Source of the DNA: a virus
Taxonomy: Duplodnaviria > Heunggongvirae > Uroviricota > Caudoviricetes
Direction: 5' to 3' (one strand)
Virus record (IMG/VR): IMGVR_UViG_3300033075_001920
Length of the DNA stretch: 64,000 nucleotides
Below are positions 42,892 through 53,377 of this stretch, piece after piece. The notes beneath the pieces were generated by a model. It saw only the letters and a list, made by a program, of their open reading frames with translations, was not told where the DNA came from and did not search any database. Within the stretch, counting starts at the first letter, position 1, and each line of letters opens with the position of its first letter. Made by a program: the position numbers and the translations under genes.

Positions 42892-43326
42892 AGGAATTTT
42901 ATTTTGATAATAAACTAATTACAAAGTTCTTATAAATAAGGTCATAAATTTCAAGCACTTGCACTTATTTATTAGCTTAAAAAATAATTTTGCTCATTTT
43001 ACCTTGTCGCAGTAAGCATCTTCGAGGATTTATAAAATTAAAAAAAAAAATAAGTGCAAGTCGCATCTTGTAAAATCAACCCCTAAAAAGCTGATTTTTC
43101 ATTATTTTAGAGTATAACCAGCCTCACTTTTTAAATTTCAATTCGCATGAAATAACATAGAAATCACTCCGGATGCCGGCAGGGGCTATAAACACATTAC
43201 CCCACCTTGGGCAAAAGGCAGGGTAACATGTAAATTATGAATACTATCAGGTATCAGGGCAAATGTACGGGAAAGAAAAAAGACCGGCCATATACAGACC
43301 GATCTTTTTTTACACAAATACACAAA

Positions 43327-43401
43327 TGGTTGCGGGGGACGGACTCGAACCGCCGACCTGGGGGTTATGAGCCACCCGAGCTACCGCTGCTCCACCCCGC
43401 G
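43327..43401 (-). tRNA. trnfM: tRNA-fMet (CAT), initiator
   Basis: cloverleaf, C1:A72 mismatch, encoded CCA. Confidence 0.92.
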
Positions 43402-43564
43402 ATAAAATGGAATGTATGGTCAGTCAGCAAAAGCCCACGGACCAAAATGGGGCAAAGTTAAAATCAGCACGAAAACAACTTTCTCATCTTTTACATTCCA
43501 GTGGACAAATATAGAAGAAAAGAAATAATCCTAAAAATATTTTTTCAGATAATAAAAAATCCAT

Positions 43565-43730
43565 TATTTTTGTTTTGTCTATGCGAAAGAGCCCTGCGCC
43601 AAAAGAACCCTCAGCTAAAAGTGAGATACTGTCTCCAAACAGCCTCATCTAGGATAGTATCCTGGATCTGATTGGTCAATTGCAGACCAATTTCACAAAA
43701 GAACCGGTTATGCATGACCGGTTTTTTTTT
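43565..43730 (+). ncRNA. putative small RNA with own promoter and terminator
   Basis: TATTTTTG at 43565; serial hairpins; terminator aaccggtt..gaccggtt plus T-run. Confidence 0.55.
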
Positions 43731-44007
43731 ATTCCGGAATATGAACAATAGTCCATCCGTCTGGTTCTGTAAACTTATGCTTCACACAATAAGTCATCGC
43801 TTTGCCATAGGTTTTTAAATTCATTGCCAACTGGGTATTAAGTGTAGTGGTATGGTCTTTCATAAGGTATTCTAAGGTAGTTTTATTCTGTATTAGATAA
43901 ATTCCTTCGGAAGTAAAGATTTTGTGCATCCTACGAATGGAAGATGCATCATCCCTTGAAAAAAATAGTTGTCTCATATAATAAATACGACGGAGCGTGA
44001 CATTCAA
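43729..44007 (-). CDS. hypothetical protein
   Basis: ORF between tRNAs. Confidence 0.55.
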   Translation of the reverse strand: MNVTLRRIYYMRQLFFSRDDASSIRRMHKIFTSEGIYLIQNKTTLEYLMKDHTTTLNTQLAMNLKTYGKAMTYCVKHKFTEPDGWTIVHIPE

Positions 44008-44141
44008 TTACATTAATCGAAATTAACAATTAACAAAACAAGGGTATAAGGCAAAGACTGCCAGTGCTGTATGTCTGCAAATACCATCTTCACATTTAAC
44101 AAATGATTTGCACAAAATTGTGCAAATTTTATAGAAACTTT

Positions 44142-44215
44142 GTCTCCCGAAGAGGAGTCGAACCTCTAATTGCAGGGTCGTAACCTACTGGTTTGTCCAT
44201 TAGCCTACCGAGAGA
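44142..44215 (-). tRNA. trnR: tRNA-Arg (ACG)
   Basis: cloverleaf, loop TTACGAC. Confidence 0.88.
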
Positions 44216-44220
44216 AATTT

Positions 44221-44293
44221 GGGTGTAACACCGGATTCGAACCGATACCAGCTGATTCACAGTCAGCCCGCCTGCCATTAGCGTAGAAACACC
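44221..44293 (-). tRNA. trnH: tRNA-His (GTG)
   Basis: loop CTGTGAA, G-1 present. Confidence 0.9.
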
Positions 44294-44302
44294 ATATATT
44301 TT

Positions 44303-44376
44303 GTACTCCCCAAAGGATTTGAACCTCTATTTCCAGAATCAAAGTCTAGCGTCCTGCCAGTTAGACGAGAGGAGTA
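44303..44376 (-). tRNA. trnQ: tRNA-Gln (TTG)
   Basis: loop CTTTGAT. Confidence 0.88.
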
Positions 44377-44424
44377 TGTAATTACTACTAATCTGTATTA
44401 AAATTAGTAGTAACTCACCATTTG

Positions 44425-44510
44425 AGCCACTTGTAGGATTTGAACCCACGATGAACTTTCGTTTTCTGCTTACAAGGCAGGTGCAATCGACCAGGCTATG
44501 CGAAAGTGGC
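44425..44510 (-). tRNA. trnT: tRNA-Thr (TGT) with long variable arm
   Basis: loop CTTGTAA; variable arm AAC-GAAA-GTT. Confidence 0.85.
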
Positions 44511-44524
44511 ATTTTAAAGAACTG

Positions 44525-44596
44525 TGGAAATGACTGGAATCGAACCAGTCCGCACGGATTTTCAGTCCGCTGCTCTACCAACTGAGCTACATCTCC
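44525..44596 (-). tRNA. trnF: tRNA-Phe (GAA)
   Basis: loop CTGAAAA. Confidence 0.92.
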
Positions 44597-44602
44597 ATTT
44601 TG

Positions 44603-44675
44603 AGCCTAGTACTGGATTTGAACCAGTGTACACATGATTTTGCAGACCATGACCTAACCACTCGGACAACTAGGC
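44603..44675 (-). tRNA. trnC: tRNA-Cys (GCA)
   Basis: loop CTGCAAA. Confidence 0.9.
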
Positions 44676-44682
44676 TTTTATT

Positions 44683-44762
44683 TGCGGTTCAGTCTCCCTC
44701 CTAATTAGAAGTTGTAGGCGTGCACTAACGCCTCGTTATTCGGACATTTCCTACGCTGAACC
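44683..44762 (-). ncRNA. tRNA-sized structured element of unclear type
   Basis: closing stem GGTTCAG/CTGAACC, inner AGGCGT/ACGCCT hairpin. Confidence 0.4.
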
Positions 44763-44837
44763 TAGAGGGGGTGGCTTGCCGTTAGCCGATTGCCGTTTTC
44801 ACAGTTTACAGGATTCGAACCCGCATTTCCCCCAACG
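44763..44837 (-). ncRNA. circularly permuted tRNA-like element Y (opened at anticodon loop)
   Basis: 3' half (GGGGG-AAAT-T arm-acceptor), GAAA, then 5' half (acceptor-TC-D arm-CCCCC). Confidence 0.7.
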
Positions 44838-44913
44838 TGGCATAAGCAGGATTCGAACCTGCGCATTCCTGCTCCCAAAGCAGGTCGGAAAAACCGGACT
44901 TCCGTATTACGCC
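44838..44913 (-). tRNA. trnP: tRNA-Pro (TGG)
   Basis: loop TTTGGGA. Confidence 0.88.
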
Positions 44914-44933
44914 ATTTTTTTATATGTAAGAAC

Positions 44934-45010
44934 TCATAAGAGCATCGTCCTTCCATTAAACGATCACCCATTAAACGGGTGAGCCGGGGTTGAACCGACA
45001 TAATGCCTCG
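44934..45010 (-). ncRNA. circularly permuted tRNA-like element X (opened at anticodon loop)
   Basis: GGCAT-TAT-T arm-TCACCC, loop, GGGTGA-TC-D arm-G-ATGCT. Confidence 0.7.
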
Positions 45011-45085
45011 TACTCGGTGCGGGGATCGAACCCGCTGCAACAGGATGAAAACCTGCCGTTTTAACCTACCGTGAACTAACCGAGC
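45011..45085 (-). tRNA. trnE: tRNA-Glu (TTC)
   Basis: loop TTTTCAT. Confidence 0.88.
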
Positions 45086-45087
45086 AT

Positions 45088-45116
45088 AAAAAAACCCTGA
45101 TTGTTAGTCAGGGTTT
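45088..45116 (-). terminator. attenuator terminator of leftward tRNA operon
   Basis: AAAACCCTGA-ctaacaa-TCAGGGTTTT plus T-run immediately before tRNA-Glu. Confidence 0.85.
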
Positions 45117-45143
45117 TAAAATATCGTAGTATTTTCAATTATC

Positions 45144-45224
45144 TCACGACACAATAAACCCTGATTCGCATGTAAAACATGGGAATTGCTCGGGGGTGTG
45201 TCGCTGAATAAGATTTAAAATCAC
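45144..45224 (-). CDS. leader peptide 1: MILNLIQRHTPEQFPCFTCESGFIVS (GTG start)
   Basis: codons 7-20 use only Q,R,H,T,P,E,F,C, the amino acids of the downstream tRNAs. Confidence 0.85.
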   Translation of the reverse strand: MILNLIQRHTPEQFPCFTCESGFIVS

Positions 45225-45333
45225 GTTGCAATTATAAAGAAAAAAATAGAATAAACAAATTAATATTTTTGGAATGGGAAAATATAAACCAATACCTTTA
45301 GAGAATATGAAATATTACAGTTTTTGCGAGACT

Positions 45334-45522
45334 GTTGTATATGCCTTTCAAATTGAGGTTATTCACAACATGAATCGCAGATAGAAGTTGTAAAAGCCAT
45401 TAGTGATAACTGGGCTGTGTTGTAAGGCATTATTTCCTGATTCATCGGCTTCGCAAGGAAGACTCCACAGGCGCATCGCGGGTACACTCCCGCTGAAATC
45501 AGAGAACTGATGTGCAAATATA
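45334..45522 (-). ncRNA. TnpB/Cas12f-like guide-RNA scaffold copy B with mini-array
   Basis: promoter TATATTTG; scaffold to 45387; spacer 45354-45386; repeat ATTTGAAAGGCATATACAAC 45334-45353. Confidence 0.8.
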
Positions 45523-45563
45523 GGAAAATTCTTGAATTCTGTTAGTAATTTAGAAAAAAATAT

Positions 45564-45571
45564 TATATTTG
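45564..45571 (+). promoter_or_regulatory. -7 promoter element of Leu/Ser/Tyr tRNA operon
   Basis: TATATTTG. Confidence 0.75.
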
Positions 45572-45579
45572 CACTCCCG

Positions 45580-45642
45580 ATGAGACAACAATTATCACTC
45601 AGTTATTCGTACCTATCAGCCTTTGCTGATCAGCTCGGATAA
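45580..45642 (+). CDS. leader peptide 2: MRQQLSLSYSYLSAFADQLG
   Basis: codons 5-13 use only L,S,Y, the amino acids of the downstream tRNAs. Confidence 0.88.
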   Translation: MRQQLSLSYSYLSAFADQLG

Positions 45643-45667
45643 CCTATGTGATTAAAATCTTGCATAG

Positions 45668-45695
45668 AAACCCCGGCTGAAAAGTCGGGGTTTTT
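45668..45695 (+). terminator. attenuator terminator of Leu/Ser/Tyr operon
   Basis: AAACCCCGGCT-GAAA-AGTCGGGGTTTTT. Confidence 0.85.
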
Positions 45696-45705
45696 GTGTT
45701 TATAT

Positions 45706-45779
45706 ACCCCTTTAGCCCAACGGAAGGAGGCGCGTGCCTTAGGAGCATGACAGTATCGGTTCGAATCCGATAGGGGGTA
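45706..45779 (+). tRNA. trnL: tRNA-Leu (TAG), short variable loop
   Basis: loop CTTAGGA, A73, 5-nt variable region. Confidence 0.8.
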
Positions 45780-45815
45780 CAAAAAAAAGTACACTGTACA
45801 AAAAGTGTACAAAAT

Positions 45816-45889
45816 GCACCCGTAGTCCAACGGCAGGAGACGAAGAGTTTAAGCCTCTGACAGTGTGGGTTCGAATCCCTCCGGGTGTA
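45816..45889 (+). tRNA. trnL: tRNA-Leu (TAA), short variable loop
   Basis: loop TTTAAGC, A73, 5-nt variable region. Confidence 0.78.
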
Positions 45890-45894
45890 CAAAT

Positions 45895-45985
45895 GGAAAG
45901 TGAAGCAGCTGCATTGGAGCGGCGATCAGTCTTGAAAACTGAGTCAGGTTTTGCCTGTGGGGATCGGGTCCTCCTCTTTCCGCCA
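45895..45985 (+). tRNA. trnS: tRNA-Ser (TGA), atypical T-loop
   Basis: loop CTTGAAA, long variable arm, G73, CCA. Confidence 0.82.
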
Positions 45986-45990
45986 GTTAT

Positions 45991-46079
45991 GGAAGATAGT
46001 CAGATATGGCTCGCTGAGTCTGTTTGCTAAACAGATCTGCTTTAAAGGAGCAGTGAGGGTTCGAATCCCTTGTCTTCCG
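45991..46079 (+). tRNA. trnS: tRNA-Ser (GCT)
   Basis: loop TTGCTAA, long variable arm. Confidence 0.88.
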
Positions 46080-46087
46080 CTAAATAT

Positions 46088-46173
46088 GGGTGTGCTGTCG
46101 CGATTGGTGGAGCGGCGCCGGTCTGTAAAATCGGTACTTTGATACGCTGTGGGTTCGAATCCTACCACACCCT
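46088..46173 (+). tRNA. trnY: tRNA-Tyr (GTA)
   Basis: loop CTGTAAA, long variable arm. Confidence 0.88.
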
Positions 46174-46214
46174 CTAAATAAACATAAATATACAAAAGTG
46201 TGTATATTTACATT

Positions 46215-46820
46215 TTAATGTATGTTTGGCAGTATATTCAACTCCGAGTATTCCTTTCCGAAATTTTCAATCGCAGCTTGATTATATGCCATTGCAGCAT
46301 CTTCCTCGTTTATAAAATAACCCAGATGCTTTTTAACGTAATCTAATTTTATATAAGCAGCCCATTTTTTTGCAAAATTACTCCAGCTAACTCCCTTGTA
46401 AACACTGGATGGCTCATCGCCGTTTGCTGTTTTGGGTTTCTTCTCCTTGTAATGTGCTTTACGATGATCAATGATTTCAATATTGTCTCGTCTTAAATTG
46501 AGCGGGTTTTTATCCTTATAATGGATAATAGATTTACCTTCAATATCCATCATTAATTTTGCTACCGGCGCAACAACCCTCTTACCTTGTTTTGAAATCC
46601 ACAATGCCATTACTATACCCCTCTTTTTATCAAAGAAGATTGCCTGCTGTCTTAAAATTTCATAATCTAAATCATCAAATTCAATGATTTTACCGCAGGT
46701 TGTTTTGACCCATCTGAATTGATTCGCAAATATCCGCATTGCTTTTATTGCATCATTTTTTGAGATATTTTCGGTTTTCTTTCCAAAAATGTCGTGCAAT
46801 ATTTCAATTTCGGTTTTCAT
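46215..46820 (-). CDS. HNH-AP2 homing-endonuclease-like protein
   Basis: IHYKDKNPLNLRRDNI (degenerate HNH) plus SSVYKGVSW...HLGYF..EEDAAMAYNQAA AP2 domain. Confidence 0.85.
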   Translation of the reverse strand: MKTEIEILHDIFGKKTENISKNDAIKAMRIFANQFRWVKTTCGKIIEFDDLDYEILRQQAIFFDKKRGIVMALWISKQGKRVVAPVAKLMMDIEGKSIIHYKDKNPLNLRRDNIEIIDHRKAHYKEKKPKTANGDEPSSVYKGVSWSNFAKKWAAYIKLDYVKKHLGYFINEEDAAMAYNQAAIENFGKEYSELNILPNIH

Positions 46821-47073
46821 CTGTTTTGCAAAGTAAATCTATTTAAAATAAATTGTTGTTATTGTTTAGTTTGAAAATGTCGAACTTTAAAATGTTTTCC
46901 GGAATAAGGGTTTATGAAAGAGCAAATACTATATGTTACTGAGGCGGGAGTTCTTATGTTAAATGTATGTGATATTGTTTACGGAATACAATATTTTGAG
47001 TATGAAACGCTGCAAAACCAAGTTTATTGGCTGCATTGTCCTGTTTGGTTTTATGATAGATATAATTAAATCT

Positions 47074-47265
47074 AAACCGAGAACTATAAAAATATTAGTA
47101 GTGTCTCAGTTTGAAATTTTAGACCGTTTGGTTTTTTATATCCTTACAAATTTACCGTACAAGAAAGAACTATGTATTTAATATTCATCTTTTTATAAGT
47201 GTATGGTTTTTTTGTATCCTTACAAATAACCATACACATAGGTCAAACCGAGAACTATAAAAATA
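47074..47265. repeat. AT-rich non-coding region with nested direct repeats
   Basis: AAACCGAGAACTATAAAAATA at 47074 and 47245; TATCCTTACAAAT at 47139 and 47215. Confidence 0.85.
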
Positions 47266-47294
47266 ATTTTAATTTATTTTCCCGGTTTTTTGTG

Positions 47295-47427
47295 TACATT
47301 TGCCTTGTTCTTTGAACCCAGCGGGAGTGTACCCGCGATGCGCCTGTGGAGTCTTCCTTGCGAAGCCGATGAATCAGGAAATAATGCCTTACAACACCGC
47401 CCAGTTATTACTAAAGGCTTTTACAAC
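47295..47427 (+). ncRNA. TnpB/Cas12f-like guide-RNA scaffold copy A
   Basis: promoter TACATTTG; 109 nt nearly identical to reverse complement of 45387-45495. Confidence 0.8.
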
Positions 47428-47530
47428 TAGTACGAAATTGTCGATTTCTTTAGTTTGAAAGGTATTTACAACTCGTATGAGTATCATAAATTTGAAAGGC
47501 AATACAACATTCCCTCCAGCTCACATCTTT
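47411..47530 (+). CRISPR. minimal CRISPR-like array with short repeats
   Basis: CTAAAGGCTTTTACAAC / GTTTGAAAGGTATTTACAAC (47453-72) / ATTTGAAAGGCAATACAAC (47490-508) separated by unique 25- and 17-nt spacers. Confidence 0.65.
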
Positions 47531-47558
47531 CCGTTATGCACCTAGTTGTAAAACTTAA

Positions 47559-50474
47559 GTGGATAATACGCATTTATCCATTTTAGCTTTGCCGAACCAT
47601 ATGAAAAATATATTTTTAATGCTGTTCTGCCTTTTGTCTCAGATCAGCTTCGGACAAACTCCGACCGACACCATCTATCTGAATGGGAAGACAAAAACGA
47701 CATTCAGCCTTGGCAAAACAATACCATTTTATTACATCGATTGCATTCAGTTCACAACAAGAACCACTTCCAGATCTATTTCGGGAGTTGGAACAGTAGT
47801 TTTTAAATCCGATGGCTCAGGCTACATTACGCCTTCATCAGCCGCTTATACTGCCAAATGGGATTACTATGTTTCAAATTGTGGATATGAAAAAAGGCAT
47901 CTTTTTTTTATGCAGAAGCCTACCATCCCGCCCCCGCCGGCCAATAAAGTACCTATACCAATATCAGATGCTTATACGATAGATCAAGATGCTACACTTT
48001 CTGAAAATATACTTATCAATGATTCAGATCCGGATTCAGATCCAATAACAGTTGCCTCATTTGCAATAAACGGAATTATTTATTCTCCCGGCACTCAGGT
48101 TATCCCATCGGTTGGAACTATAACCATTTTATCTTCCGGAGCACTATCTTTTTTAAATGCCGCAGGTATAACAGGAGATATTCCTATTATCAGTTATCTT
48201 ATCAAAGACAGTAAAGGAGCGCAAGCTGCATCATCTGTTTTAATTTCTGTAAAATCCAAACCGACCCTTCCGCCCAATACATTTGTTCTGGATAAAACAT
48301 CTACTACTTCAGCAGGAGTATACATCGGCAATAAACTAATCAGAACCCTTTGGAACAATGTTTCTAAACCGGCAGGCACTTATACCGTATCCTGGGATGG
48401 AAAAGACGATGCAGGGAACACAGCTCCTCCGGGAGGAAAAATAGCAGTTCTTTACCATCAGATGACCTACCAGTGGAAGGCAAGTATTGGAAATTCTTCC
48501 AGAGTGGATACAGGTTCTCATAAGCTCAGAGGGTTACGCACCCCGTTTGCTGGAGTTGAGGCTGGTGGCTACATTTATATATGTAAAGGTAACACAGAAG
48601 GTAACAGCCCGATATTCAAAATAGCCAAGTCGGATCCTCAATATATGTATTCTCTCCGTGAATCAGGTTGTGGGGATTGCGATATGCAAACTGAGTTTGT
48701 AGCCTCGGATGGTAATTTGGTTTATTGGGCAGGTTATGACGCTTGGACCGGTTACTGGCCTGTTACCAATAAAGTTCCACCGGATACCAATTCAAGAGTA
48801 AAGTCGATTATCTATGCGACCAAGGTAAGCGATGATCAGGATTATACATTTCCATCCGGAAAAAAGACAAAAGCTTCCCTTGCGGCATGTAATACATATT
48901 CCGGCATTGGTATAGTGCTGGACGATGACCTTGCCCGCCCTACGGGTCTTGCTGTCATGTCCACGGGGAATTATCTGTATTCTACCCATCTGGGCAAGTC
49001 GTGGGTTAGGTGCTATAATAAGACTACCGGTTCGCTGATAAGAACAATGGTCAATACTTTATCCAATATTGCAATCGATGGCAATTATCTGTATGGAATA
49101 AGCGGATCAACCATTAAAAAATATGCAATTAATTCAGATGGCACCCTGACAGATCAGAATGTAAATATTGCCATGCAAAGTCCTTTAAATATCTCTGTAA
49201 AAAATGGCACAATCATGGTCATAGAGGCAGCAACACAGCAGGTCTTAGCATACAATACCTCGGGTGTACTTCAATGGACTCTTGGTCAAAGCGGAGGATA
49301 TAAATCTAACCCTTATGTCAGCGCAGACAGGTTTAACTTCATAGAATTTAATAGAGATGAAAAAAAAGGATTTATTATACCTCAGGCAGATGGTTCGTTT
49401 TGGGTAGGAGATGCAGGCAATTGCAGAACTATCCATTTTGCAGCCGACAGAACGTATATTGAAAATGTAGCATATCTTCCTACCAATTATAATTGTGGAG
49501 TTGATCAGAATGCCCCTACAAGGGTATTTGCCGGATTTTTAGAATACGATGGACCTACCGGAACACTGGTAGCTAATTGGAGCGCAAACCTAACAGCCAA
49601 CTACAATTACATTGATAATCGTGCAATTTTTTCAAGCATACAAACCATATTAGGCAGAACCTATGGATTGATACTTTATTATCCAAATCCACCTTCTTCT
49701 GAAAATGTCGCTCAGGAATTAGTAGAACTTACATCCACGGGAATCAGGTTTACCGGCATTCGAAGGAATAATGACAATCGCTATGTATTTGACAAAAACG
49801 GCGATTTGCTGCATCCGGAAAGCGATTACTACGCATTATCGGGCACCGGAAAAATCATCCGGGAAAGATTTACAGGAATTAATACTTCAGGTAATCCTAC
49901 CTTTTCAGCTCCGGAAACCTTGTACACCTTTCCACTTGGTAAAAATTATCCTTCCTATGCTTCTTTGAACTATGGCACTAATGCCAAAGGAATTGTATTT
50001 TCGGATCATTATAATAATACCGGTTATCACTTAGGACGCATTGAAAACGGACAATGGATATGGATGACATGCAAATCTACTTCCAGAAACTATACTGGGG
50101 ATATGCCTACGGATGGCACCTTTGATTGCGGGAATGGAACACAGTATGCAGGATGGAATCTTTATAACATAGATTCATTTTTTGTCTGGTCTTTTCATGG
50201 AGAATTTTGGAAAAACTCTCAAACCAATATATGGAATCTGTTTCATGAGGATGGTTTAATGCTTATGCAGCTGGGTAAAACCGGTCCGCAGGCAGACATC
50301 TATAATGGAGGACATGATGCACCCAGGGAAGCTGCTGGAAACATGCTTGGAGGCCAGATTGTTAAAATCGGAAACGATTACTGGATCTTCTATTGCGATG
50401 AATCCAGACATGGTGCTATACATTACTTTAGGATATCCGGGGCAAACACGGTAAAAATAATTTATTTAAAATAA
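47559..50474 (+). CDS. secreted multidomain protein (signal peptide, Big/cadherin-like Ig, FlgD-Ig, beta-propeller); start likely 47601
   Basis: MKNIFLMLFCLLSQISFGQ; SDAYTIDQD..NILINDSDPD; LIRTL..YTVSWDGKDDAG. Confidence 0.82.
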   Translation: MDNTHLSILALPNHMKNIFLMLFCLLSQISFGQTPTDTIYLNGKTKTTFSLGKTIPFYYIDCIQFTTRTTSRSISGVGTVVFKSDGSGYITPSSAAYTAKWDYYVSNCGYEKRHLFFMQKPTIPPPPANKVPIPISDAYTIDQDATLSENILINDSDPDSDPITVASFAINGIIYSPGTQVIPSVGTITILSSGALSFLNAAGITGDIPIISYLIKDSKGAQAASSVLISVKSKPTLPPNTFVLDKTSTTSAGVYIGNKLIRTLWNNVSKPAGTYTVSWDGKDDAGNTAPPGGKIAVLYHQMTYQWKASIGNSSRVDTGSHKLRGLRTPFAGVEAGGYIYICKGNTEGNSPIFKIAKSDPQYMYSLRESGCGDCDMQTEFVASDGNLVYWAGYDAWTGYWPVTNKVPPDTNSRVKSIIYATKVSDDQDYTFPSGKKTKASLAACNTYSGIGIVLDDDLARPTGLAVMSTGNYLYSTHLGKSWVRCYNKTTGSLIRTMVNTLSNIAIDGNYLYGISGSTIKKYAINSDGTLTDQNVNIAMQSPLNISVKNGTIMVIEAATQQVLAYNTSGVLQWTLGQSGGYKSNPYVSADRFNFIEFNRDEKKGFIIPQADGSFWVGDAGNCRTIHFAADRTYIENVAYLPTNYNCGVDQNAPTRVFAGFLEYDGPTGTLVANWSANLTANYNYIDNRAIFSSIQTILGRTYGLILYYPNPPSSENVAQELVELTSTGIRFTGIRRNNDNRYVFDKNGDLLHPESDYYALSGTGKIIRERFTGINTSGNPTFSAPETLYTFPLGKNYPSYASLNYGTNAKGIVFSDHYNNTGYHLGRIENGQWIWMTCKSTSRNYTGDMPTDGTFDCGNGTQYAGWNLYNIDSFFVWSFHGEFWKNSQTNIWNLFHEDGLMLMQLGKTGPQADIYNGGHDAPREAAGNMLGGQIVKIGNDYWIFYCDESRHGAIHYFRISGANTVKIIYLK

Positions 50475-50514
50475 TTTTGTTATTTCAATAATAGTAATTA
50501 TAATTGCAGTGCAA

Positions 50515-50601
50515 ATGAGCAAAAACGTCAATATAGCCGGCATGAATAAAGATTGGAGAGGAATTCTTCACTCAGGGGCTCTATTGCGCACAATGATATA
50601 A
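50515..50601 (+). CDS. leader peptide 3: MSKNVNIAGMNKDWRGILHSGALLRTMI
   Basis: codons 3-17 use only K,N,V,I,A,G,M,D,W,R, the amino acids of the downstream tRNAs. Confidence 0.85.
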   Translation: MSKNVNIAGMNKDWRGILHSGALLRTMI

Positions 50602-50625
50602 AACCGTTCGGAAACGCGCCAAGAA

Positions 50626-50655
50626 AAGCCCCAGAGAAATCTGGGGTTTTTTTTT
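50626..50655 (+). terminator. attenuator terminator of third tRNA operon
   Basis: AAGCCCCAGA-GAAA-TCTGGGGTTTTTTTTT. Confidence 0.88.
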
Positions 50656-50692
50656 GCACTTATGTTCTTTGACATTTAAATAGTTTCATTAC

Positions 50693-50765
50693 GGGCCCGA
50701 AGCCAACGGCAGGCCGGCTGCTTTGCAAGCAGATCGTTTGGGTTCAACTCCCACGGTGTCCACCA
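50693..50765 (+). tRNA. trnA: tRNA-Ala (TGC)
   Basis: loop TTTGCAA, G3:U70, CCA. Confidence 0.85.
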
Positions 50766-50857
50766 GTTGGCTCATTTTTGAGCCAGTTAGTGTCTCAAAA
50801 ATCATTGATTATGAGACGCAATGTAGTTTTGTGGCTCATTTTTGAGCCACAAAACAG

Positions 50858-50968
50858 GTAGTGGGTCGATCACCGGATATATCCATTCTTATGGTAAATG
50901 CTAGGTTCGAATCCTGCCGGCGGGTTGCCCTCTAAAATTGGAAGGGGAACCCGCCGTAGACTCACTAC
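50858..50968 (+). ncRNA. circularly permuted tRNA-like element Z (opened at D-loop)
   Basis: 10-bp GTAGTGGGTC/GACTCACTAC stem; TTCGAAT T-loop; CGGCGGG..CCCGCCG-TA acceptor. Confidence 0.6.
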
Positions 50969-50976
50969 TTTTTTAC

Positions 50977-51052
50977 TCTCCTTTAGTTCAGTCCGGCTAG
51001 AACATCCCACTTTTAATGGGTAAGGTCACTGGTTCAAATCCAGTAGGGAGAA
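50977..51052 (+). tRNA. trnK: tRNA-Lys (TTT)
   Basis: loop CTTTTAA. Confidence 0.9.
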
Positions 51053-51058
51053 CAATAA

Positions 51059-51133
51059 GCAGATCTAGCTCAATTTGGACAGAGCAACGGCCTTCTAATC
51101 CGTAGGTTTGGGGTTCGAATCCCTGGTTCTGCA
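51059..51133 (+). tRNA. trnR: tRNA-Arg (TCT)
   Basis: loop CTTCTAA. Confidence 0.85.
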
Positions 51134-51144
51134 CAAGCAAATAT

Positions 51145-51215
51145 ACGTCTGTGGTGTAATGGTAGCATAAGTGATTCCAAACCATTTGATGGCAGTTCGA
51201 ATCTGTCCGGGCGTG
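51145..51215 (+). tRNA. trnW: tRNA-Trp (CCA)
   Basis: loop TTCCAAA. Confidence 0.85.
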
Positions 51216-51271
51216 CAAATTTAGTTCATTTATGAAAAAGACTAAATTTAGTGTTACAGCTAAATTTCTAT

Positions 51272-51346
51272 AGAAGTATGGCCAAGTTGGTAAAGGCATC
51301 TCACTGATAATGAGAAAATGCGGAGGTTCAAATCCTTCTACTTCTA
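51272..51346 (+). tRNA. trnI: tRNA-Ile (GAT)
   Basis: loop CTGATAA. Confidence 0.9.
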
Positions 51347-51355
51347 CAAATATAT

Positions 51356-51427
51356 TGCGGGGTGGAGTAGCGGTAGCTTGCTGGGCTCATAACCCAAAGG
51401 TCGCGGGTTCGAATCCCGCTCCCGCAA
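51356..51427 (+). tRNA. trnM: tRNA-Met (CAT), initiator-like body
   Basis: three G-C pairs in anticodon stem; U1:A72. Confidence 0.85.
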
Positions 51428-51431
51428 CATC

Positions 51432-51502
51432 AAGATTGGGTGGCGTGAATAACCAATAAGCGCGACATGTGCACCCAGCGCATGCTAATGACATCCAATC
51501 TT
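51432..51502 (+). ncRNA. unidentified structured RNA between tRNAs
   Basis: closing stem AAGATTGG/CCAATCTT. Confidence 0.35.
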
Positions 51503-51509
51503 TATTCAT

Positions 51510-51582
51510 GCACGATATAGCTCAATTGGCTAGAGTATCTGACTTCCAATCAGAGGGTGCGGTTCGAATCCGATATTGTGCT
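51510..51582 (+). tRNA. trnG: tRNA-Gly (TCC)
   Basis: loop CTTCCAA. Confidence 0.9.
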
Positions 51583-51629
51583 CGTAGAGGCGAGAAGCCG
51601 CAGTTAAAGTTCTGCTTAAAAACTTACAT

Positions 51630-51705
51630 TCTCTGGTAGCTCAGCCTGGTTTAGAGCAAATCCCTTACAAGGATAAGGTCGTTGGTTCGAATCCAACCCG
51701 GAGAA
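51630..51705 (+). tRNA. trnV: tRNA-Val (TAC)
   Basis: loop CTTACAA. Confidence 0.88.
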
Positions 51706-51715
51706 CAAGATTATT

Positions 51716-51791
51716 GGACCTTTAGCTCAGTCTGGTTAGTAGCAACTCACTCATAATGAGAAGGCCGGTGGTTCAAATCCATCAGGGTCCA
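51716..51791 (+). tRNA. tRNA (CAT): Ile2 (lysidine) or elongator Met
   Basis: loop CTCATAA; ATA codon in leader peptide 3 favours Ile2. Confidence 0.8.
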
Positions 51792-51859
51792 CAACATGCA
51801 TAAAAAATCACTGTTTTCTGTACATGTTTAAGTTATATGCACTGATTTTGTGCATTTAT

Positions 51860-51945
51860 TGTGCCTTGACCGAGTGGCCGATGGTAGCAGACTGTTAATC
51901 TGCCGGGAGTAATCCCCATCGTAGGTTCGAATCCTACAGGTACAG
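51860..51945 (+). tRNA. trnN: tRNA-Asn (GTT) with long variable arm
   Basis: loop CTGTTAA; variable arm GGGA-GTAA-TCCC. Confidence 0.85.
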
Positions 51946-51954
51946 CAAATAATA

Positions 51955-52032
51955 CGGTTCTATAGGGGAGTCCGGCCGTCCCCGTCTGCCTGTCACGCAG
52001 AAGACCACGGATTCGAATTCCGTTAGAACCGC
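51955..52032 (+). tRNA. trnD: tRNA-Asp (GTC)
   Basis: loop CTGTCAC. Confidence 0.85.
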
Positions 52033-52034
52033 AA

Positions 52035-52162
52035 AGGTCATTGTGTATAAAAAGACGAGTGCTGATCAGCAGATTTTTGGAGTCCAATCCCAAAAATTAC
52101 ATACGTGAGGTAGACAAGATTCCCGATGCAATATCCGTTAATGCTGATTTGCACAATGACCT
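52035..52162 (+). ncRNA. putative 128-nt structured RNA at end of tRNA operon
   Basis: 12-bp closing stem AGGTCATTGTGT/GCACAATGACCT. Confidence 0.5.
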
Positions 52163-52424
52163 GGCAAAAAAAAACCTTTTAAGCCAAATAAGGATAGGCT
52201 GAACTTCTATTATTTTCCAATTCTTCCTTAGACCTGACTTTAAAATTGAAAAGAGGCGCATTAGGTTTGATAAACAATATGAATGCCATATCACCGGCAA
52301 CTACATAAGCTGCAGTGGAATTATGTGTTACAATTTCTTTCATATTATTTTCAAAGGTCTTTAATTTTTAGCTTTTTTTCAAAAATAAAAAAGCGGAAGC
52401 ACTTTAAAATACTTCCGCCCCTTA

Positions 52425-52751
52425 GGTGGAGCTGGGGGGCTTCGAACCCCCGTCCGGTCGCAGGAACCCTTACATATTTATAGTAATAGAGAGATTAAGA
52501 CCTCACAAACCATGATGGGTATTTTGAATTTCTTTCAAAATTCTGTGCAAATAGTCGCTTGCATCAATTTTGCGGATTTGTGACACCGCGGTTTCACCTT
52601 AGGCGGCAAGCTTAACGCTGGCGGGCTGAGGACGGAAAGCAATCACTTTGCAGTTTTTGTCTTTTGTTTTATGAATGTTGTTTTAGCAGTGCAAACAAAC
52701 TGCTACTAAATGTAAGAACTCATATCTACCCCGTCAATTCCAGTCAACCCC
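52425..52751 (-). ncRNA. ssrA: tmRNA
   Basis: 5' GGGGTTGACTGGAATTGAC; 3' GGTTCGAAG..CAGCTCCACC with G3:U70; tag ...KNCKVIAFRPQPASVKLAA*; promoter TATCTTTG at 52756-63. Confidence 0.92.
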
Positions 52752-52852
52752 GCTTCAAAGATAAAATAGCACTTGCACTTATGCAAATCCAAAAGTTTGT
52801 TTCTTTGTTTTTTCAATTTATTTTTGTAAAGGATATAAAACCAACGTAATCC

Positions 52853-53377
52853 GTGCAAAAAACATTAAATCAGAGATATGGTCACCTTCTGGGCACATCT
52901 CCTCTGACAGATATACTTGATAATAAGGTAGTTGAAACATCTGCCATGTTTGAAGTAGGAGGATCTGTTCAGGGTAAAGGAGTCAATCCCTCGGATGGTA
53001 AAAGAGGAGGGTATTTTAAGGGTCGATCGCACAGGGAAGGTGGAATTAAGGCATACAATGTTACCACCGGTCAGCCAATCGAAGTGGAAGGCGATGAAGT
53101 AATCATTACCAAACCAGCAGTATTGGACGAAACAAAAAGAGAATTTGAGGGAGAGATGCTCACTAATAAAGAAATTCTTTCCCGGATAAACGAAGGTGGA
53201 GGCGGAGTAAAGTTCGAAGATGGCGGAGAAATTGAAAGATGCGCATGCGGCGGAAAAACTTACAAATATGGCGGAGAAGTTCTTGAAGACAGTATAATTA
53301 TTTCAAGACTTGAAAGAGATTACCAGGAACGGGAAATCAGCCGTGCCTACAAACAATTTTTAAGTAAAATACGATAA
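52853..53377 (+). CDS. hypothetical protein with GRSHREGGI/EVEGDE motif and FEDGG/YKYGG motifs
   Basis: ORF. Confidence 0.75.
   Translation: MQKTLNQRYGHLLGTSPLTDILDNKVVETSAMFEVGGSVQGKGVNPSDGKRGGYFKGRSHREGGIKAYNVTTGQPIEVEGDEVIITKPAVLDETKREFEGEMLTNKEILSRINEGGGGVKFEDGGEIERCACGGKTYKYGGEVLEDSIIISRLERDYQEREISRAYKQFLSKIR

Follow-up and report, generated by a model that had tools for sequence, protein, structure and literature searches.

A putative leader-peptide attenuator with codon-level sensing upstream of a phage tRNA operon

Why phages carry tRNA genes is an old question, and the regulation of these genes has hardly been considered. A concrete form of the second problem is posed by the stretch of Caudoviricetes DNA analysed here (64,000 nucleotides of IMG/VR record IMGVR_UViG_3300033075_001920, a 132,469-bp contig of an uncultured virus; hereafter the window), which harbours three tRNA clusters and a tmRNA gene: what decides whether the tRNAs of the third cluster are made? 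Our analysis, performed entirely in silico and devoid of any data on expression, ribosomes or termination, makes it likely that this operon is gated by a ribosome-mediated (leader-peptide) attenuator with codon-level sensing. The phage probably makes the tRNAs of operon 3 only when ribosomes read the codons of one short run slowly.

The region upstream of the third tRNA cluster contains, in this order on the plus strand, a promoter, a 28-codon ORF, an antiterminator, an intrinsic terminator and the tRNA array. The promoter-like element (50476–50506, +) is composed of TTTG, a 19-nt spacer and TATAATTG, and can alternatively be parsed as TTGTTA-N16-TATAAT. An upstream ORF of 971 aa ends at 50474, and there is no terminator between that point and 50621. 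The leader ORF itself (50515–50601, +; ATG at 50515, 28 codons, TAA at 50599–50601) is nearly leaderless, with a predicted 5′ UTR of only ~3–8 nt. Its codons 3–17 (50521–50565, +), which are identical to those listed in the first-pass annotation, encode the run K N V N I A G M N K D W R G I (hereafter the census run). The 5′ half of a predicted anti-antiterminator (segment 1, 50526–50538, +) lies inside this run and pairs with 50577–50588 in the MFE fold. Further downstream are the antiterminator (segment 2, 50571–50591, +), where CTCAGGGGCTC pairs with the 5′ arm of the terminator and an inner helix lengthens the pairing, and the intrinsic terminator (50621–50655, +), which consists of a 5′ arm (50621–50635), a GAAA loop, a 3′ arm and a T9 run. 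The terminator has a GCCCCAGA/TCTGGGG core lengthened by A/U pairs and then followed by T9 (−21 kcal/mol), and ends 38 nt upstream of the first tRNA-like gene. Between CTCAGGGGCTC (50571–50581) and AAGCCCCAGAG (50626–50636), 9 of 11 positions are paired (3 bp, an A/A mismatch, 6 bp and a terminal mismatch); the 9/11 complementarity to the terminator arm claimed earlier is thus real, and it is placed as in the other leaders described below. The leader ORF, its translation being inferred, has the position expected in an attenuator, immediately behind a promoter and ahead of the tRNA genes. No match to the Rfam leader families (His, Trp, Leu, Thr and similar) or to the T-box could be detected in the interval 43000–52900, either at gathering score or at E ≤ 1.

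The size of the controlled operon depends on the detection threshold. By default, both ARAGORN and Rfam report ten tRNA genes (50977–52032, +), namely Lys-TTT, Arg-TCT, Trp-CCA, Ile-GAT, a CAT tRNA (51356), Gly-TCC, Val-TAC, a second CAT tRNA (51716), Asn-GTT and Asp-GTC. The first-pass annotation had counted eleven, and the additional gene, a tRNA-Ala(TGC) at 50693–50765 (+) with G3:U70, an encoded CCA and two acceptor-stem mismatches, is seen only at relaxed thresholds (24.8 bits in Rfam versus a cut-off of 29; relaxed threshold in ARAGORN). It aligns with the tRNA-Ala of Cellulophaga phage phi4:1, which holds the same first operon position. The Ala and Lys genes are separated by a structured spacer of ~200 nt (50767–50962, +) without a match in Rfam. 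It comprises two near-identical hairpins (~50767–50786 and 50826–50855) and a tRNA-like element that has a GGTTCGAATCC loop and into which a hairpin is inserted; an 11–12 bp stem with T6 behind it closes the element. The spacer may serve in processing, contain what is left of a decayed tRNA or act as a second stop; the long stem with its T6 (~50856–50968), placed as it is between Ala and Lys, could act as a transcription stop. The tmRNA gene (52425–52751, −; 61 bits in Rfam) immediately follows the third tRNA operon but is encoded on the other strand, and a link between tmRNA and ribosomes stalled on the leaders is conceivable.

All 15 codons of the census run specify amino acids carried by the downstream tRNAs, and all ten of these amino acids are covered, with none outside the set. 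No longer run of this kind occurs in any of the six frames of the 64-kb window. At the amino-acid frequencies of the window itself, 15 in-set residues would arise with a chance of 9e-5 and, once in-set, would cover all ten amino acids with a chance of 0.015, which gives a joint chance of ~1.4e-6 per position. On amino acids alone leader 3 is nevertheless the weakest of the three leaders of the window, because its set of ten amino acids covers 54% of the residue frequency; its codon diversity, taken alone, is not unusual (p = 0.49).

The same leader-attenuator layout is found in front of all three operons of the window. Sister attenuator 1 (45086–45232, −) contains the run Q R H T P E Q F P C F T C E (45206–45165, −), the longest in the window for its set, directly upstream of an operon for Glu, Pro, Cys, Phe, Thr, Gln, His and Arg-ACG. 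Sister attenuator 2 (45563–45705, +) contains the run L S L S Y S Y L S (45592–45618, +), the longest Leu-Ser-Tyr run of the window, directly upstream of Leu-TAG, Leu-TAA, Ser-TGA (sub-threshold), Ser-GCT and Tyr. The promoter of leader 1 (TTTG-N19-TATAATTGCA) has the same layout as that of leader 3, and leader 2 has TATATTTG. Taken together, the three runs partition the 20 amino acids, only Arg being common to more than one of them.

Some features of the second operon deserve a separate mention. Its tRNA-Ser(TGA) (45895–45981, +) is a long-arm tRNA with an unusual T arm (GGGGATCG...CCTCC); ARAGORN and Rfam do not report it at default settings. It is also present, without annotation, in phi4:1 (L010 6628–6722), where a small "hypothetical protein" CDS (Phi4113_076) overlaps it, and a search with its motif recovers more than 120 IMG/VR contigs. 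A 122-nt inverted repeat (45386–45507 and 47307–47428; 94% complementary, with weaker extensions) brackets leader 2 together with its Leu-Leu-Ser-Ser-Tyr operon and an HNH endonuclease gene (46215–46820, −), and a TAnnTTTG box precedes each of its arms. One arm of this repeat folds no better than shuffled sequences (z = 0.04). The region may represent a mobile or duplicated cassette.

The predicted folding of leader 3 is suggestive of a switch. In the fold of the full transcript (MFE −40.6 kcal/mol, z = −2.68) the terminator coexists with a 1:2 pairing (50526–50538 with 50577–50588), and this pairing, which involves the regulatory codons, is present in both the MFE and the centroid structure; as modelled, the full-length leader is in the classical 1:2 / 3:4 state. 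We then masked a ribosome footprint, moved codon by codon, on a transcript cut just before the 3′ arm of the terminator. With the A site of the masked ribosome on codons 2–15, the 5′ arm of the terminator was 86–88% sequestered by 50571–50581; the value dropped to 58% and 44% for codons 16 and 17, and to 9–18% for codons 18–26. The switch point in this model therefore falls between codons 15 and 18, and leaders 1 and 2 behave alike. At −13.1 kcal/mol, the antiterminator duplex of leader 3 is more stable than 97% of the mononucleotide shuffles (p = 0.028). Overall, every part required by the attenuator reading of the first-pass annotation (promoter, leader ORF, anti-antiterminator, antiterminator and terminator) could be located, and the ribosome-mask model switches as that reading would have it.

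Two details of this arrangement need qualification. The stop codon of leader 3 is located 18 nt past the antiterminator, which is its departure from the textbook trp attenuator, and with a ribosome on the stop codon the antiterminator is free again in the equilibrium model, so that kinetic coupling is required. However, ORF tails extending 5–18 codons past the run are the rule in all leaders that we collected. The common design, as far as can be inferred, seems to be one in which an unstalled ribosome crosses the antiterminator during synthesis of the terminator. Moreover, the last two codons of the run, GGA and ATT, are close to the antiterminator, and a ribosome stalled there would partly cover segment 2. 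Since ATT is the sole codon for Ile-GAT and lies in the shadow of the antiterminator, sensing of this tRNA is doubtful.

The mechanism that we propose may be outlined as follows, with leader translation, its coupling to transcription and the direction of the response all being inferred. Transcription would begin only a few bases upstream of the ATG at 50515, and the 28-codon leader would be translated by a ribosome as RNA polymerase advances. If all codons of the run (50521–50565) are read fast, the ribosome would cross segment 2, and the terminator (50621–50655) would form and stop transcription before the tRNAs. If any codon is slow, its tRNA being scarce or uncharged, the ribosome would stall in the run and cover segment 1, leaving segment 2 free to pair with the 5′ arm of the terminator and allowing the polymerase to enter the tRNA array. 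In the absence of translation, segments 1 and 2 would pair with each other and the terminator would form. The predicted outcome is a demand-driven feedback on tRNA supply. The run would sample individual tRNA species, probing Arg-TCT through AGA (and, in leader 1, Arg-ACG through CGA) and the two Ile decoders through ATA and ATT.

As no close relative of this virus was found, we sought the pattern in other phages. A blastn search against GenBank phages returned isolated tRNAs only. The neighbouring 376-aa protein has no relative in IMG/VR, and only four weak ones, on short contigs, in a large protein collection. Relatives recognized via a nearby ATPase (52–61% identity) have no tRNA array, and their single CAU tRNAs have a promoter without a leader. 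The cultured Cellulophaga phage phi4:1 (KT962245), on the other hand, contains three census-leader units with terminators (L010 3494–3720, 4468–4694 and upstream of 6450), in which the tRNAs are grouped differently and the leaders differ correspondingly. One leader, with Q R L H L Q E L E Q P, precedes Pro, Glu, Gln, His, Leu-TAG, Leu-TAA and Arg-ACG; another, whose run is made up of T, K, G, I, V, D, A and R, precedes Ala, Lys, Ile, Gly, Asp, Thr, Val and Arg-TCT; the remaining one, with Y N N S N W S F S Y, precedes Tyr, two Ser, Asn, Trp and Phe. An identical promoter stretch is common to the first two leaders of this phage, and one of its leaders is annotated as a hypothetical protein (Phi4113_075).

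To extend the comparison, two IMG/VR pattern scans, seeded with a tRNA-Ser and with an ileX-like tRNA, provided ~230 loci, and an automatic census score was judged against 400–500 control windows. Census-positive regions upstream of tRNAs were found in excess in both sets: 26 of 629 at p ≤ 0.01 (6.3 expected) in the first, and 48 of 1022 at p ≤ 0.02 (20.4 expected) in the second. The flagged regions collapse to ~28 leader families with ORFs of 20–42 codons that display no sequence homology among themselves, only common rules of composition. Nearly all flagged leaders are followed by a strong terminator ending 3–40 nt before the first tRNA, and carry a complement to its 5′ arm starting 0–20 nt after the run (p ≤ 0.03 in 15 of 20). 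In three related Ser/Arg leaders the variable part of the terminator arm (GGATTA, GAACTT, GAATCT) covaries with the antiterminator (TAATCC, AGGTTC, AGATTC) so that both pairings are kept. Leader 3 is missed by the automatic score, because a small subset of its amino acids (A, K, R) scores higher by chance, and was added by hand to the Arg, ATA and third-base comparisons given below; the family tables behind these were compiled once the data had been seen, and rest on operon boundaries that we set and on our ARAGORN calls. Not every phage with tRNA genes has the feature: census leaders were found neither in Bacteroides phage DAC19 (three tRNAs) nor in the tRNA region of coliphage T5.

Is the leader sensing individual tRNA species, as the earlier reading of this DNA held, or would a simpler device suffice? 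The alternative that survives best, though we consider it improbable, is a leader-peptide attenuator that senses only amino acids or the general speed of translation, its codon matches being due to codon usage or chance. Within the window alone this could hardly be dismissed. CGA occurs in leader 1, whose operon has Arg-ACG, and AGA in leader 3, whose operon has Arg-TCT, but the chance of such a match is ~0.37 × 0.64 (~0.24), and the ordinary codon diversity of leader 3 (p = 0.49) likewise gives this alternative some support. Beyond the window, leader codons covary with operon content across phages, an observation that, together with the anatomy of the leaders and their statistics, does not depend on the proposed mechanism. 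The box of the Arg codon follows the box of the Arg anticodon in independent leader families (10/0/0/6, Fisher p = 1.2e-4 in the first family set; 14/1/3/8, p = 8e-4 in the larger one, in which a few cases disagree), and operons containing both Arg tRNAs have both Arg boxes in the leader (L024, L067). Codon usage does not readily account for this, as CGN makes up only 4–6% of Arg codons in phi4:1 and the L015 family, and yet their leaders before Arg-ACG use CGT or CGC. The claim that Arg is sensed at the isoacceptor level, weak on the window's own AGA and CGA, is thereby strengthened.

Ile codons discriminate in the same way. Where Ile-GAT is the sole Ile tRNA of the operon, the leaders together have 19 ATT/ATC and not one ATA, even though ATA accounts for 17–65% of the Ile codons in those phages. 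Where a UAU and/or an ileX-like CAU tRNA are the only Ile decoders, the Ile codons of the leader are almost exclusively ATA (e.g. three ATA codons, read directly, in the leader of L198), and operons with both kinds of decoder, the window included, have both ATA and ATT-type codons in the leader. At the family level, ATA occurs in the leader only together with an ATA-decoding tRNA in the operon (UAU or ileX-like CAU; 5/0/1/6, p = 0.008), whereas an internal ATG goes with Met-like CAU tRNAs (5/1/1/5, p = 0.04) and not with the ileX-like type. Third bases also depart from genomic usage toward codons read by U34 tRNAs: in boxes served only by such a tRNA they are shifted from T to G (p = 6e-8). 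A point against the match in leader 3 is that the codons GTC, GCC and GGC need U34:C reading by the phage tRNAs. The four-codon boxes of leaders 1–3 of the window have six C, six A, one G and no T endings, T-ending codons being common in the genes of this phage. Against the sensing of individual species, and in favour of the alternative, is the lack of any association between Ser and Leu codon boxes and operon isoacceptors in the leaders of other phages; the isoacceptor match is therefore not universal. This lack of tracking may reflect truncated loci and missed tRNA calls, or it may be a real limit.

Codon-level sensing bears directly on the identity of the tRNA at 51716 (51716–51792, +), for which the ATA codon of leader 3 had been taken to predict a lysidine-modified tRNA-Ile2. 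If the run samples two Ile decoders with its ATA and ATT codons, 51716 is implied to be the ATA-reading one. The comparison of tRNAs points the same way. The molecule has an elongator-type cloverleaf with C4:G69 and C5:G68, acceptor-stem pairs that serve as TilS determinants in E. coli, and its anticodon-stem pairs 28–31 are identical to those of the phage's own Ile-GAT. Among 5,426 E. coli genomes, the genes that match it best over the full length are annotated tRNA-Ile (78–79% identity) and sit in a prophage Ile-Arg-Arg cluster beside an antitermination gene. The margin is modest (identity of 0.75 to ileX, 0.79 to the prophage tRNA-Ile and 0.71 to metT; 0.74 to T5 Ile2 versus 0.64 to T5 Met). 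The tRNA groups with phage CAU tRNAs characterized by GGnCCyTTAGCTCA...AGGGnCCA, a class that reaches 0.86 identity to ileX. With ATA tracking ATA decoders across leader families and 51716 placed in this ileX-like class, the prediction has fared well: we assign 51716 as an ATA-reading tRNA-Ile2 with good confidence on the combined weight of tRNA comparison and leader statistics, lysidine modification itself being inferred.

The remaining CAU tRNAs of the window are less easily matched to a codon. The one at 51356 (51355–51428, +), inside operon 3, is initiator-like, its anticodon stem having three G-C pairs, but it pairs U1 with A72. The window has yielded no metT-like elongator tRNA-Met, and the internal ATG of leader 3 is left without a clear elongator tRNA-Met partner; it would be matched only if 51356 works in elongation. 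Another initiator-like CAU tRNA (43327–43401, −; C1xA72, encoded CCA, 71% GC) has its own TAACTTTG promoter and no leader.

A second alternative, marginally less probable than the first in our estimate, is that the ORF is translated but acts otherwise (by affecting how the tRNA precursor is processed or how stable it is, through Rho-dependent polarity, or as a functional peptide), the hairpin being merely the terminator of the 971-aa gene. In its favour, no data exist for conditional termination at this hairpin, the ORF ending at 50474 has no other terminator before 50621, and transcription–translation coupling is unknown in the presumed Bacteroidota host. Against it stand a dedicated promoter between the end of the 971-aa ORF and the leader, a complement of the terminator arm that ~20 unrelated leaders have at a corresponding position, one family showing compensatory changes, and leader peptides that have composition rules but no sequence in common. 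Mere chance, i.e. an accidental short ORF between an AT-rich promoter-like stretch and a terminator, is scarcely credible even though short ORFs are everywhere and a ten-amino-acid set amounts to half of all residues, given that the three longest in-set runs of the window each lie directly upstream of their own operon, that the third covers all ten amino acids (P = 0.015 given in-set), and that the pattern recurs in unrelated phages well above an empirical null.

We thus retain the codon-sensing attenuator as the preferred reading, and its mechanism is classical attenuation; what is new is the regulated genes, which are tRNAs, and the codon-by-codon census. Multivalent attenuators are known from enterobacteria, where the ilvGMEDA and ilvBN leaders contain Ile, Val and Leu codons and the thr leader contains Thr and Ile codons. 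Leader 3 resembles these in having a short ORF just after the promoter with regulatory codons for more than one amino acid, and in its four-segment logic of terminator, antiterminator and anti-antiterminator, by which a stall leads to readthrough. It differs from them in regulating tRNAs rather than biosynthetic enzymes, in being phage-borne and in its nearly leaderless mRNA. Furthermore, instead of runs for one to three amino acids it samples ten, mostly once or twice each, and its choice among synonymous codons mirrors the tRNA species.

A functional parallel is pheM, the leader attenuator that controls pheST (phenylalanyl-tRNA synthetase), hisL and trpL being the single-amino-acid prototypes. 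As in pheM, part of the translation machinery would be attenuated through leader translation according to how much charged tRNA is available. Unlike pheM, which responds to one amino acid and controls a synthetase, the product of the leader 3 operon is the sensed molecule, which makes for a direct feedback loop on tRNA abundance. In T-box riboswitches a conserved fold binds the uncharged tRNA itself, and no translation is involved. They share with leader 3, as we read it, the sensing of tRNA status at isoacceptor resolution (by a codon-like specifier) and the switching of an intrinsic terminator, but the specificity of leader 3 would be carried by a translated ORF, and it has no T-box match. 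To our knowledge, all leader-peptide attenuators described so far regulate enzymes of amino-acid biosynthesis or aminoacylation. By this criterion leader 3 does not qualify, as the genes downstream of it are tRNAs and not enzymes of either kind. A literature search found no description of leader-peptide control of tRNA genes.

Whether these observations can be generalized is, in our judgement, an evenly balanced matter: phage tRNA operons would carry codon-resolved sensors, each leader being a roll-call of the exact tRNA species encoded behind it, by which the phage tops up scarce decoders. The shortage could arise from host shut-off or from tRNA-cleaving host defences. The presence of such units in the cultured phage phi4:1 makes the idea testable at the bench. 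The match at the codon level offers a sequence-only route to the function of ambiguous tRNAs, and the leaders could serve as a key to them, e.g. to CAU tRNAs as Ile2 and to the wobble range of U34 tRNAs. If the proposed mechanism is true, leader-peptide attenuation would extend to RNA genes, with direct feedback by the product and a census of up to ten or more amino acids. Phage tRNAs would then be an inducible reserve rather than a constant supplement, tied to codon demand, host shut-off and tRNA-targeting defence.
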